DNA of 64,000 nt from Patescibacteria group bacterium (GCA_018902845.1 JAHIPV010000007.1:6989-70988), one strand, 5' to 3'; counted from the stretch's first letter, positions 51,508 through 55,243 are shown. The notes: a model not told the origin generated them from the sequence alone. A program made the numbers and translations.

Positions 51508-54420
51508 ATGACTAAATTAAATCTAGATGAAGTAAAAAAACAACTGGCAGAGAACCATTTGTCTGTAGACGATTTGATGGAGAAGTTCTGGCGAATGGAT
51601 TCTTATGGGACTGTGTTGACAAATCCTATATTTTTAGAGGCATTAATTGTCTTTGTTACCGTGAAAAAAGGTGATATTAATTTTTCGAAATTCGAGTTTT
51701 ATAAATATTTTTTTGACAAAATTATCGGTGGAAACTTTGGGTTAAGACAAAAGCTACAAAAGCTAGCGCTTGGGGTTGAGACAAAACAATCTAACAAACT
51801 TGAGCAAAAAGAATTTAGTAAGCTATTGTCAAAAACTGGCGTTGAGAAAAAAGAGATTGAAAAGCTTGGATTATTGAGCGTGTTAGATGATGATAAGATA
51901 GGATTTTTTCACCATACTTTGTCGGAGTTTTTGGTTGCTGAAAGTTGGATTGAAAATGATCGGGTTTTGAACGAATTAAAGAAATTGCTCATTGTAGGCA
52001 GAGGAGAAGTATTGGCGTTGTCATTTTCGTGGTTTGGGGTGATTAGGTTTTTATTGGACAGCGAGAAGGGGAAAGAGGTTTTGGGATGGATGATGAATTT
52101 GGCAAGGGCCAATCCTCAAATTATAGATGAAGGTTTTTGCGATACGATCACCTCAATTGATCCCGCTAAACTGAAACCGAAAAAGAAAGCCGAATTGTTT
52201 GCGTTGATATATCGTACTTATCGTCAAAAAAGAGTGTGGTTGCCACTGTGGACAAGGGCATCTTTGCCGAGTTTTTGCCAAAATGAAAATTACGAGGCAA
52301 TGAAGGCCCTGGTTGACGTAAAAAAAGGTACAGACACAGATAAACTGGTAAGACTAGCGACCATTGTGGATATTATAGCCAGATTGATGGAAGACAAGTC
52401 GCCGTTAATTACCAGAAAGGAAAGAGACTGGTGGAAAGAAAGATTGGTGGATTATGCCAATGATGACAATGAAAACGGAGTATTACAGAGACGAGCATTG
52501 AAGGCTTTGGCGACTTATAAAGATATTGGTTTAATTGAACGAGTTGGCGGATGTTTTGGTCATAAAGACAGTCTGGTAAGACAGGCGTTTCTTGAATTTT
52601 GTTCCGATACGGCACCAAACAGTGAGAAATCAATCAAGTGGATGGTTGAAGGAATCAAAAGAGGTGATGCCATTTATGCTCGCTATGGTTTATATAAAAT
52701 TTCATCTTTGGGTGGGATAAAAATATTACTAAAGAAATTGGTCGACGACAGTAAGTTTTTGAAAAAGTTTTTGGACAGAGAAAGCATTTTTAACAACAAG
52801 GACAGAAATGGAGATCAGTCACTTATTGAGGTAATCGAAAAATTTAAGCATGATGATAGAATTTTGAGCTTGGTGAAGGCGGTTATCAAAAAAGCCTTTA
52901 ATACCAGAGAAATATATTATCAAGAGCGGTCATATTTTCTTAAAGAATTGGCAAGGATTATGGAAAGTGTGGAAAACGATTATATTTTTCAAATTATTGA
53001 AGAAGCGATGGTAAGTGGCGAGGAAAGACCGATGTTTGTATATGACTATATTCCGCTTTTTTCTTGGTTACTTAATCAAGATAACGTTCTTAAATTTCAT
53101 AAACGCTTTAAAAAATTTGATGATAAAAGTGGAAGATTCGGGCAACAGTCAATTTATCGATCAAGATTTGAGGGTAAAGATGGGGAGAGGGCGTATAAAA
53201 AGGCAGTGAAATTGGGTATTGTGGAAAAAATCGAAGAAAATGATTGGCAAAAAGAACGAAAGAATAATGAATATGGAGAATTTAAGCGGTTATTGGGTAA
53301 TGATAAGAAAAAGAAATATTATCCGGCTGTATTTAAGTATTTTTGGCAAAGCGAGAAAGCGGTTAGAGAATTATGGCAAAAAGATGACGAGAAACGATTG
53401 AGAAGATTGGTATTGGAAGAGGGGTTGGACAAAATTGAACCGAGAAAATTTAAGTTAAAAATAGCAAGAGATTACGACGGCAAAAGATCGAACCAATACA
53501 CAATATCCAGTATCTTTTCTTATTTTGGAGATTTGATCAAAGTGGCAAGGTTGCTGAAAATTAAGATTGACCCCAGTGTTCGCCAAAAAATTATTGATTT
53601 TATCCCCTTTGCATATTCCGGCGACCGACAGATAATTTTGGATGTAGTAAAAAAGGTCAGCGATGAAGAACTTGAATGGGTTAATAGCCAGTATTTAAAT
53701 AAAAAAAGTGATGTCAGGTATTTTTTGCCTGGTGCTTATGTGTATTTTGCCAGAATAGTCAAAGAAAAAGATTGGAGGGTCAAAAGTGTGAAGGGTGTAT
53801 TGGTGTCATTTGTGACGGATGAGGATATTGCCGAACATGATCGGAAGTATGCACTAGAAACTTTAGGCAAGTATATAACCAGTGGCGATGGGAAAATTAA
53901 ACAATTACTGGAGGGTGATTTTGGTGATGAAAAGATTCAGAAGGTGGCCGACGATATTCTAATATCGGTTTTTAAAGATAGGGTGGCGATAGAGAGAAGA
54001 ATTGAAAAGATAAAAGCGTTTGCTCAAATAGCCAAAGGTTACGAAGAGCCAGAAAGCGGAATGGTTCATGCAGTGGGAGAGATTGAGGGTGAGTTGTCTG
54101 AAATGAATTTAGCAAAATCACTGTTCAGACTTGGAAGCAATGAGTATAAAGATTATTTTTTTGAATTGCTTGATTACTCGGCGGAATTATTAAATAAAGA
54201 CAGTAAGGCATATTGGCAATATGTTAATTACTTATGGAGGATAGTAGTTGGATATTTCGCTGGATTGGAGAATAAAAATTTAGATTTGATCAAGGGGCTT
54301 GAGGAGTGGTTGTATAAAAATAGAAGTGTCGATCGAATTAATTGGTTTGAGGATAAGTTGAGGATTCTTAAACGTAGTTTTGCCGATACTGTATTTGAGA
54401 AAGGGAGACGAGATGGCTAG
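51508..54420 (+). CDS. 970-aa helical-repeat protein with NACHT winged-helix-like motif but no P-loop (STAND-NTPase-derived?)
   Basis: VLTNPIFLEALIVFV and FFHHTLSEFLVAESW resemble the NPLLL and FxHxSFQEFLAA motifs of the NACHT winged-helix domain. No Walker A/B anywhere in the ORF or upstream. Remainder predicted all-alpha (HEAT/ARM-like). Confidence 0.45.
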   Translation: MTKLNLDEVKKQLAENHLSVDDLMEKFWRMDSYGTVLTNPIFLEALIVFVTVKKGDINFSKFEFYKYFFDKIIGGNFGLRQKLQKLALGVETKQSNKLEQKEFSKLLSKTGVEKKEIEKLGLLSVLDDDKIGFFHHTLSEFLVAESWIENDRVLNELKKLLIVGRGEVLALSFSWFGVIRFLLDSEKGKEVLGWMMNLARANPQIIDEGFCDTITSIDPAKLKPKKKAELFALIYRTYRQKRVWLPLWTRASLPSFCQNENYEAMKALVDVKKGTDTDKLVRLATIVDIIARLMEDKSPLITRKERDWWKERLVDYANDDNENGVLQRRALKALATYKDIGLIERVGGCFGHKDSLVRQAFLEFCSDTAPNSEKSIKWMVEGIKRGDAIYARYGLYKISSLGGIKILLKKLVDDSKFLKKFLDRESIFNNKDRNGDQSLIEVIEKFKHDDRILSLVKAVIKKAFNTREIYYQERSYFLKELARIMESVENDYIFQIIEEAMVSGEERPMFVYDYIPLFSWLLNQDNVLKFHKRFKKFDDKSGRFGQQSIYRSRFEGKDGERAYKKAVKLGIVEKIEENDWQKERKNNEYGEFKRLLGNDKKKKYYPAVFKYFWQSEKAVRELWQKDDEKRLRRLVLEEGLDKIEPRKFKLKIARDYDGKRSNQYTISSIFSYFGDLIKVARLLKIKIDPSVRQKIIDFIPFAYSGDRQIILDVVKKVSDEELEWVNSQYLNKKSDVRYFLPGAYVYFARIVKEKDWRVKSVKGVLVSFVTDEDIAEHDRKYALETLGKYITSGDGKIKQLLEGDFGDEKIQKVADDILISVFKDRVAIERRIEKIKAFAQIAKGYEEPESGMVHAVGEIEGELSEMNLAKSLFRLGSNEYKDYFFELLDYSAELLNKDSKAYWQYVNYLWRIVVGYFAGLENKNLDLIKGLEEWLYKNRSVDRINWFEDKLRILKRSFADTVFEKGRRDG

Positions 54421-55243
54421 TACTGATGTCAAAAGGTCACGATCGATAAAAGTCAAACTGCCGCTATTTGAGTGGGAAGAGAAGATGGAATGGGTTGAAA
54501 AAGGAAAAGTTCTAGATGCAAGTCAACACAAATTAAAGCTTGAGACCAGTATGCCCATAACTGATTTGATTTCCGATGTGAAAGTGAGAGGGGGAACGCC
54601 ACCCGTTTTGAGTGTAAGAAGTGGGGGTGATGTTTCAGTTTTTCAAAATTTTGAACAAAAAGAATCCAGTAGCCCCGATGTTAGACCACATGTCCTTCTT
54701 GCTGGAGAAATTGATGCGCCGTATATTGAGACCGCCGCGAAATTACTAGGCAGGATGGATACTTTAAAAAAAGTGAAATTATTTCCGATAGGTACCTGTC
54801 GACAAGGTGTTGGGAGTTTAGGTACGGGGGATAGTAATTTGTGGAAGATCAGTATGGTTGTTAATTCAATAAGCCAAACCATTTCGAGTAAATACATGGC
54901 CCTATTTGATTGTGATTATGGAAAAAATATACAAAAAATAAATGAGATAAGTTGGTCGAAGAATATTACGGTTTTTATTGCACCCCAGCTATATCACACA
55001 CCCATCAAGGACGGTATTGAAAATTTGCTAACTGAAAGGATAATCAAAAAGGCGTATTTAGATCCAGATACGCGTTTATGTTTTGTTGTGCCGAATAGTC
55101 AAAGCAAGATTCCTTGCTGTGTACGTGATGACAGAAAAAATGAGTTGTGTGAATGGGTTTGTAGGATTGGAGAACCAAGAGATTTTGTGAATTTTTATGT
55201 AATTTTTAATATGATTGAAGAGTTTTTGGAAAGTAAAAAATAA
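54413..55243 (+). CDS. hypothetical protein (277-287 aa) translationally coupled to the 970-aa gene
   Basis: Start MASTDVKRS overlaps the upstream stop by 8 nt; Cys-containing C-terminus (CFVVPN...PCCVRDD...CEWVC); no recognised domain. Confidence 0.4.
   Translation: MASTDVKRSRSIKVKLPLFEWEEKMEWVEKGKVLDASQHKLKLETSMPITDLISDVKVRGGTPPVLSVRSGGDVSVFQNFEQKESSSPDVRPHVLLAGEIDAPYIETAAKLLGRMDTLKKVKLFPIGTCRQGVGSLGTGDSNLWKISMVVNSISQTISSKYMALFDCDYGKNIQKINEISWSKNITVFIAPQLYHTPIKDGIENLLTERIIKKAYLDPDTRLCFVVPNSQSKIPCCVRDDRKNELCEWVCRIGEPRDFVNFYVIFNMIEEFLESKK

Follow-up and report, generated by a model that had tools for sequence, protein, structure and literature searches.

An NTPase-less NACHT-derived protein and its Toprim partner form a candidate sensor-effector defense pair in Patescibacteria

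Two overlapping genes, here called A and B, lie in a 64,000-nt stretch of DNA from a Patescibacteria (candidate phyla radiation, CPR) genome (GCA_018902845.1, JAHIPV010000007.1:6989-70988). We call the whole stretch the window and count coordinates from its first letter (Table 1). Gene A encodes a 970-aa protein, 100% identical to the NCBI hypothetical protein KKE47_02880 [Patescibacteria group bacterium], that sequence comparison places among NACHT-derived proteins, and gene B encodes a small partner with a Toprim fold. A is not extendable upstream, because in-frame TGA and TAA stops stand just before its ATG and the 270-nt intergenic region is shared with the divergent methyltransferase gene M.HpaII; a longer form was ruled out on these grounds. 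Mechanical open reading frame (ORF) calling starts B at a TTG (54380, 287 aa), but the ATG at 54413, with GGGAG ahead of it, gives 276 aa and is more likely the true start, given that the ortholog P0025 (70% identical) begins at the equivalent codon. The scan that found a terminator-like hairpin downstream of B found no comparably strong site between A and B. Promoter-like sites are no more numerous in the region than in shuffled sequence, so the one upstream of A is a candidate only.

A is a NACHT-type STAND derivative that starts right past the P-loop core and keeps the helical and winged-helix part together with a repeat body. Pfam, NCBIfam and PADLOC scans of A returned nothing usable (a sub-threshold HEAT_2 match, no NACHT), and PDB sequence searches with A and the A1 profile gave weak alphaRep/HEAT matches only. 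Its homologs fall into two groups: eight short forms of 960-1177 aa, 29-52% identical to A across the full length, and nine long forms of about 1335-1450 aa, whose matches (E 4e-93 to 7e-50) cover more than 90% of A. Against a Pfam NACHT (PF05729) gathering score of 26.7 bits, residues ~50-192 of long forms score 35.6 (P0014), 30.9 (P0022), 29.3 (P0017) and 26.9 bits (P0021), and long forms carry a Walker A (EPGYGKT), a Walker B (DALDEV) and an SCRWH block. BLASTP pairs residues 79-960 of A with 269-1145 of P0014 (E 7e-91), and in the multiple alignment the first residues of A sit on the PFSxEQVxxYL block at the end of the NTPase core. The A motifs VLTNPIFLEAL and FFHHTLSEFLVAE line up with two blocks conserved in long forms, QTPRYLELL and IEFDNTEFQEYLAAKE, directly past the P-loop domain, and are therefore homologous positions rather than chance matches. 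A pattern search for Walker A ([AG]xxxxGK[ST]) found none in A or B. Since A belongs by descent with NACHT/STAND proteins yet has no P-loop core with Walker A and Walker B, the right label is NACHT-derived, not NACHT NTPase.

Structure prediction agrees with a helical receptor remnant followed by a solenoid. The AlphaFold2 (AF2) model of A is confident (mean predicted local distance difference test, pLDDT, 85.8) and all-alpha except for small hairpins, two in the winged-helix region and one at residues 650-666. Foldseek, which favors the long solenoid of this model, returned only importin/SF3B1/CAND1-type HEAT proteins at low TM-score. The first-pass annotation of this DNA had picked out the two motifs in the 970-aa ORF, read them as the winged-helix segment of NACHT proteins, noted the missing P-loop and the overlap of A's stop with the start of its partner, expected alpha-helical repeats in the rest and proposed structure prediction as a check; on all of these points it is borne out, and its central idea agreed with each computational test made here.

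One feature of the winged-helix region stands apart. A His-His pair (H135-H136) is invariant in 8/8 short forms of alignment A6 (FFHHT..EFL), whereas long forms have D/E-N at these positions instead (FDNTEFQEYL). In animal NLRs the equivalent His touches ADP; short forms keep it strictly although they have no nucleotide-binding domain (NBD).

B adopts a Toprim fold of the OLD/retron-Eco2/AbiLii kind. Pfam, NCBIfam and PADLOC scans of B returned nothing usable, with no ATPase and no reverse transcriptase domain, a PDB sequence search gave weak alphaRep/HEAT matches only, and close relatives are few (one 70% ortholog, P0025). Residues 91-276 share 27% identity with the C-termini of AAA_21/AAA_15 ATPase proteins, and a trimmed B profile drew in 694 cluster representatives, 469 of them at E <= 1e-10. 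Most are ~600-aa proteins in which the domain occupies residues ~400-600, behind an ABC-type ATPase; two relatives carry the JGI name 'ATP-dependent endonuclease of OLD family', and stand-alone family members of 230-250 aa match PADLOC RT-Toprim_I-C (about 1e-9) and AbiLii. Across 160 family members aligned with hmmalign, G98, D101, D166, D168, G201, E203, N204, K242, C246 and C250 are near-invariant and all present in B. The full catalytic acidic set (motif-1 Glu in ExxxD, then DxD) is incomplete, with D101, D166 and D168 in place and the Glu absent. Ahead of the domain, residues 1-88 fall below pLDDT 50 in the AF2 model; the N-terminal ~90 aa are conserved in P0025. No segment of this type occurs in P0005, where a Toprim domain joins the sensor directly.

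These results recast the first description of B. The 287-aa length was that of the mechanical ORF, and the lack of a recognizable domain holds for direct scans and gives way to a Toprim assignment at the profile and fold level. Of the conserved-looking Cys/His positions, C167, C246 and C250 are conserved through the Toprim family. B is not a domain-less Cys/His protein.

NTPase loss is ancient and clade-wide. We scanned one genome per GTDB species (185,579 species representatives) with the short-form alignment; an 18-sequence alignment had no stretch conserved enough. Sixteen loci were found. Eleven are short forms without a Walker A, one of which (L014) is the P0004 contig again, leaving ten new ones labeled Shapirobacteria, Woesebacteria, Roizmanbacteria and WWE3, besides several metagenome-assembled genomes labeled Gammaproteobacteria or Pseudomonadales. 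Four long-form loci have both Walker A and a fused C-terminal domain (Actinomycetota, Paceibacterota, Ignavibacteria), and a fifth (L027, Calditrichaceae) has the fused domain, its upstream part being cut by the contig end. Walker A sits at residues ~50-90 of long forms and in none of nine short forms (P0002-P0009 among them) or the ten added from species representatives (L014-L026). The eight short forms from the homolog search begin at the same alignment position as A, and short forms make up one branch of a midpoint-rooted neighbor-joining tree over 878 shared columns. This NBD-less clade is centered on CPR bacteria with minimal genomes.

Might the missing NTPase be supplied by another gene? 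In a split NLR, a NACHT-type NTPase encoded elsewhere would dock on the helical and winged-helix part of A, and the receptor would still be nucleotide-switched; the retained post-NBD segment, including its invariant His-His pair, is hard to explain otherwise in a protein without an NBD. The genomic evidence makes this unlikely. The window and L001-L009 were searched by tblastn with nine NTPase modules, and the matches were at chance level only, the best (E = 0.025) inside the sensor gene itself. The genes upstream of short forms are unrelated and in many cases encoded on the opposite strand, with no such gene conserved alongside. A Walker-A-like match in L001 was also considered as a separate NTPase and rejected: it falls within a metallo-beta-lactamase (MBL) gene.

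Both genes are under purifying selection. Ratios of nonsynonymous to synonymous divergence (dN/dS) against the orthologs in L010 are about 0.22 for both (A, 0.23; B, 0.22, with 0.14 in its N-terminal ~90 aa and 0.21 in its Toprim part). A was compared with an 87%-identical ortholog fragment (window 53473-54417 against L010 3-953), and B with L010 943-1752 (window 54413-55243; protein identity 70-72%). The ratio of 0.23 against the L010 fragment means that A is not a decaying pseudogene. Decay of the whole pair, with A a 5'-truncated NACHT pseudogene and B an inactivated nuclease, would account for the vanished NTPase and the E-to-A change in B's active site, but it is very improbable, and the data on conservation and selection go most of the way to refuting it: about 20 intact ORFs of ~1000 aa share 28-52% identity and a common start point, the remaining Toprim active-site residues of B are all intact, and A is modeled with confidence. 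Where the first-pass annotation had left open a degenerate or a new variant of an NLR-like system, the pair is not degenerate, and we read it as the second, a variant without the NTPase. The two neighboring genes differ 2.5-fold in dS to their L010 orthologs (0.29 for the 3' third of A, 0.73 for B), and this gap in dS and identity points to recombination, or to an effector gene that turns over faster.

The downstream gene is exchanged across the clade. Toprim is fused to the sensor in P0005 (1177 aa), where the Glu is intact (VVLLEGPTD...GIENLF...LCDWLC), and is a separate gene in the window and in L010, where the A-B pair recurs with its genes overlapping by 14 nt. Five loci (L003, L005, L007, L016, L018) instead carry a PD-(D/E)xK-like partner of 219-252 aa with an invariant D...ExK...QxxxY, an assignment that draws on these motifs, on PADLOC PDC-M36A (8e-19 in L003, 2e-9 in L005) and on weak Pfam matches (HSDR_N_2, DUF234, Mrr_cat). 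A 345-aa TIR protein follows the sensor in L024 (TIR_2, 44 bits against a cut-off of 28, 3.4e-11), a 251-271-aa protein with a C-terminal transmembrane (TM) helix in L006, L015, L020 and L022, and a 73-76-aa single-TM protein in L001 and L008. In L017, L021 and L026 the sensor bears a fused helical extension of ~170 aa with an R-x4-H motif; it is HEPN-like, and Pfam gives no confirmation of that identity. A PDB profile search of the L003, L005 and L007 partners was negative, and BLAST and hhalign found no homology between them and the C-terminal domain fused in long forms.

The exchange takes place at a conserved junction. Seven loci have a stop/start overlap of 1-14 nt. In L003, L005, L006, L007 and L009 the sensor stop is overlapped or abutted by the downstream gene (1-11 nt), and in L001 and L008 the two are 14-20 nt apart. 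The P0002, P0004 and P0005 loci (L001, L006, L011) have common flanking genes around three different effectors: L001 and L011 share a following Apyc1-like MBL gene, L006 and L011 a following class II tRNA-synthetase gene. The Rosetta-stone fusion in P0005, the overlaps and the orthologous pair in L010 all point to a functional link between A and the gene downstream of it. The unit that recurs elsewhere is a sensor plus a variable effector, not B in particular; relatives keep the coupling and vary the partner. A repeat-type C-terminal solenoid sensor is thus joined to a predicted cell-killing effector domain or gene, and a fixed sensor with swapped nuclease, NADase-type and membrane partners is a signature of conflict systems.

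That signature bears on whether the pair has any role in defense. A and B might instead be a HEAT-repeat scaffold and an inactive Toprim-like adaptor in RNA/DNA housekeeping or regulation in CPR bacteria, as the missing catalytic Glu would allow; several relatives lie amid tRNA-synthetase and other housekeeping genes, and not every OLD-family protein is defensive, since the archaeal Cran1 acts in the cell cycle (PMC12796447). We find such a role improbable. Swapping among Toprim, TIR, PD-(D/E)xK-like and membrane partners is atypical of housekeeping complexes, the distribution is patchy (16 loci in the 185,579 species representatives), and the window pair sits in a restriction-modification (RM)-rich island while one long form lies inside a type I RM operon.

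It is possible that the long forms, in their own right, make up a single-gene NLR-like defense family that has not been listed. Their fused C-terminal domain is PD-(D/E)xK-like, with a D...D...EVK motif, and no PADLOC model matches them. The long form in the RM operon, P0017 (NACHT plus DUF8371, PF28130), sits between hsdS and hsdR (L012 6001-15472), in the order hsdM, hsdS, NACHT protein, DUF2283, AAA_15/AAA_21 ATPase, two small ORFs, hsdR. Literature searches on DUF8371, and on NACHT/STAND with Patescibacteria, found nothing relevant.

Two short-form loci, those of P0004 and P0003 (L001 9520-9905, L008 3320-3651), show a motif common to sensor and effector. There the sensor has an extra C-terminal tail of ~50 aa whose final ~22 residues (e.g. 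IIIVDSSIDGSNIGS) find their match at the N-terminus (INIVESKLEGSNVAS) of the neighboring single-TM protein of 73-76 aa. The common motif is ~20 residues long and rich in N/S/G/V/I; Smith-Waterman scores of 44-58 are matched by at most 1/2000 shuffles, and the best match of the small protein in the whole sensor is exactly this tail. The arrangement, a hallmark of such gene pairs, resembles amyloid-signaling NLR/effector pairs (fungal NWD2/HET-S and bacterial BASS/Bell; bioRxiv 10.1101/2020.01.06.895854, 10.1101/2024.11.07.622273), and by analogy amyloid formation by the motif is possible. A and B differ from those pairs in sharing no motif, unlike L001 and L008: the last 80 aa of A against the first 90 aa of B score 27, which 20% of shuffles reach (p 0.2). 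In BASS/Bell the motif positions are opposite to those at the P0003 and P0004 loci, where they are the sensor C-terminus and the effector N-terminus.

The A-B pair lies within a dense defense island, with an HpaII RM system on one side and a type III RM system on the other. Housekeeping genes flank the island, a phosphoenolpyruvate (PEP)-utilizing enzyme on the left and a class I tRNA synthetase at 62829. With tRNA-Glu at its edge, the island (46.9-62.7 kb) starts at a tRNA gene, a typical integration site. As had been proposed for the segment beside the RM system, an inverted repeat (IR) brackets Vsr, R.HpaII, M.HpaII, A and B; its perfect core is 78 nt (48672-48749 against 55417-55494, 100%), with more pieces on each side. 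Possibly the IR-bounded segment is a cassette that inverts or moves, with the nearby recombinase acting on it. A 6727-bp Logan contig (L013), reported from five samples, holds exactly the five cassette genes (Vsr, R.HpaII, methyltransferase, A, B); judged by gene offsets, it would cover window 48720-55446 and so end, on either side, about 30 nt within the perfect 78-nt IR. Those ends fit an assembly-graph break at the repeat and alone are no demonstration of inversion or mobility.

Residence in a cassette raises the question of whether the pair serves the cassette itself. As a toxin-antitoxin or addiction module, B would be the toxin and A a neutralizing scaffold, together stabilizing the IR-bounded element. 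The pair does share this 6.7-kb cassette with the HpaII RM genes near a serine recombinase, A and B are tightly coupled, and Toprim effectors restrained by a large partner are known, PARIS being cited as such in PMC12916289. A 970-aa NLR-derived solenoid is nonetheless far bigger than an antitoxin needs to be, the fused sensor-effector forms (P0005; L017, L021, L026) are not toxin-antitoxin-like, and most relatives lie outside such cassettes. We judge this explanation a poor fit and rather improbable.

The surroundings hold further repeats and small features. At its 3' end the recombinase gene has a 105-nt stretch (46917-47021) with an inverted copy at 48470-48574 (97%). A 24-nt piece (47078-47101) has a second copy at 55392-55415, adjoining the right arm, and the arms hold a GC-rich hairpin, TGGGGGCGGTG...CACCGCCCCCA. 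Two minus-strand ORFs of 98 and 119 aa (55195-55838) have no family match, overlap the right arm and the B-res gap and are probably not genes. tRNA genes are clustered elsewhere in the window, nine in 1.4 kb (36644-38059) and four in 0.7 kb (30624-31316), and an Rfam scan of the window returned tRNAs only. GC skew is strongly positive over almost the whole window (up to +0.5), even where long ORFs lie on the minus strand.

Table 1. Features of the A-B locus and its island in the window.
Feature	Position	Strand	Remarks
tRNA-Glu(TTC)	46848-46922	+	Overlaps predicted 3' end of the serine recombinase ORF
Large serine recombinase	46882-48420	-	512 aa
Inverted repeat, left arm	48571-48749		
Vsr	48804-49211	-	
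R.HpaII	49214-50299	-	
C5 methyltransferase (M.HpaII)	50283-51236	-	
Promoter-like site	51466-51493	+	TTTATA-16-GATAAT; 15 nt 5' of A's ATG; candidate
Gene A	51508-54420	+	970 aa from ATG; NACHT-derived putative sensor/scaffold without P-loop NTPase domain
A, NACHT-module remnant past NTPase core	51508-52062	+	Residues 1-185; helical domain and winged-helix-like element
A, motif VLTNPIFLEAL	51613-51645	+	Residues 36-46
A, beta-hairpins in winged-helix-like element			Residues 123-133 and 161-171
A, motif FFHHTLSEFLVAE	51904-51942	+	Residues 133-145
A, His-His pair	51910-51915	+	H135-H136
A, HEAT/ARM-like alpha-solenoid	52063-54417	+	Residues ~186-970 (~780 residues); presumed ligand-sensing body
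A, HEAT_2-like repeats	52444-52683	+	Residues 313-392; sub-threshold HEAT_2 match
A/B overlap	54413-54420	+	8 nt, ATGGCTAG; GGGAG 8 nt upstream; translational coupling
Gene B	54413-55243	+	276-aa partner from ATG
B, low-confidence segment	54413-54682	+	Residues 1-90; conserved beta-hairpin (16-33); proposed tether to A
B, OLD/retron-Eco2-type Toprim domain and helical subdomain	54683-55240	+	Residues 91-276
B, Ala97	54701-54703	+	Active-site position
B, D101	54713-54715	+	Active-site position
B, D166/D168	54908-54916	+	Active-site positions
B, E203	55019-55021	+	Active-site position
Terminator-like hairpin	55354-55368	+	TCCGCCGAAGGCGGG, then T-run; 110 nt past B's stop
Inverted repeat, right arm	55417-55543		
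Type III Res	55795-58254	-	PADLOC 3e-174
DUF3800	58384-59166	-	Between mod and res; PADLOC DUF3800_VII 1.5e-23
Type III Mod	59163-60728	-	1e-162
PDC-S18 candidate defense gene	60733-61656	-	4e-107

We read A and B as an NLR-derived two-gene sensor-effector module of the abortive-infection or defense type that would work without a nucleotide switch, and put this reading at a probability of roughly 60%. The solenoid of A would bind a phage-derived or infection-induced ligand, and B would be held on A through its N-terminal ~90 residues, beside the C-terminal helices of A that correspond to the Toprim fusion point in P0005. Ligand binding would alter the conformation or oligomeric state of A without ATP and so switch on or release B, which would then cut nucleic acid, whether tRNA/RNA or DNA, and phage replication would stop. 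PARIS AriB is a precedent for the cutting of tRNA or RNA, and OLD/GajA for that of DNA. Retron Eco2 provides a further precedent for the RNA branch, whose Toprim domain has RNase activity and nicks the acceptor stems of tRNAs (PMC12916289); the same paper cites work in which AriB cleaves tRNA. The anti-phage role of the pair is predicted from its RM-island context and from the long form in a type I RM operon.

Several observations weigh against this reading. At the motif-1 Glu column, B and P0025 have Ala97, while all other sequences aligned there (154, in the alignment of 160) have Glu; with Ala in both B and its sole close ortholog, B may be catalytically inactive. In Eco2, the equivalent E374 was mutated together with D378, D460 and D462 for a nuclease-dead control (PMC12916289). 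B is constrained, but its catalytic competence is uncertain; with the Glu absent, B may act weakly, act differently or need the complex for its activity. Characterized bacterial NACHT proteins need NTP binding for defense, which in bNACHT01 is abolished by the Walker A substitution K115R (bioRxiv 10.1101/2022.07.19.500537). No PADLOC model matches A or B, and several relatives lie among housekeeping genes with no obvious island.

The pair combines traits of several known systems and coincides with none. Like bNACHT and Avs proteins, A is homologous to NACHT-bearing proteins and keeps the helical and winged-helix part with a repeat-type C-terminal sensor, its long-form relatives join NACHT, helical repeats and a fused PD-(D/E)xK-like domain, and its clade comes with nuclease, TIR or membrane effectors in RM or defense-island settings. 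It departs from them in a clade entirely without the P-loop NBD, whose Walker A lysine bNACHT01 requires, and in an effector that is a separate coupled gene where the bNACHT effector is a fused domain (bioRxiv 10.1101/2022.07.19.500537). Surveys built on the NACHT module would miss A-type proteins.

Among Toprim systems, B aligns with the Eco2 (Ec67, type I-C) catalytic residues E374/D378/D460/D462, with Ala at the E374 position. It differs in having no reverse transcriptase or msDNA and in its regulation, which would depend on a protein sensor where Eco2 uses an msDNA cage; type I-C retrons are defined by an RT-Toprim fusion and a noncoding RNA, whereas A and B contain no reverse transcriptase and the Rfam matches are all tRNAs. 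B shares its Toprim domain with OLD nucleases (class 2 OLD, GajA of Gabija) and ABC-ATPase/Toprim proteins, but has no ATPase (Pfam, PADLOC and Walker A searches negative), an N-terminus of ~90 aa of unknown fold and no catalytic Glu; its relatives P0026-P0033 do carry the ATPase domain. PARIS resembles the pair in logic only, as a large sensor or scaffold with a small separate Toprim effector set off by a phage trigger: A is not an ABC ATPase, and the PADLOC AriA and AriB models (AriB being DUF4435) match neither A nor B.

What we read as new, on the strength of these comparisons, is an NTPase-less variant of NLR-like sensor-effector defense; the NACHT/NLR and Toprim families themselves are known. 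The literature searched holds no account of NBD-less NACHT relatives with modular effectors, and a 2026 survey of STAND proteins (PMC13581612) contains none of the terms with which we looked for NTPase loss, Patescibacteria or Toprim. A bolder proposal, which we hold as tentative and rather doubtful, is that this clade practices NLR-type sensing without any nucleotide-binding or oligomerization domain: a HEAT-like sensor would act directly on exchangeable effectors, in some loci through a shared, possibly amyloid-templating motif, and the Toprim of the window would perhaps be active only in complex with its sensor.

To our knowledge, the NTPase is the switch and oligomerization platform of all characterized STAND/NLR receptors, whether bacterial (Avs, bNACHT) or the NLRs of plants and animals. 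If our reading is true, a clade under selection that has kept the rest of the receptor and shuffled its death effectors without an NTPase is a natural experiment on the need for the NBD, and sensor-effector coupling would be achievable without one. The pair connects NLR-like sensors with a Toprim effector family otherwise known from OLD nucleases, retron Eco2 and AbiL, and as a compact sensor-effector pair with natural fusions it is directly testable. It would also add a defense module to the CPR/Patescibacteria.

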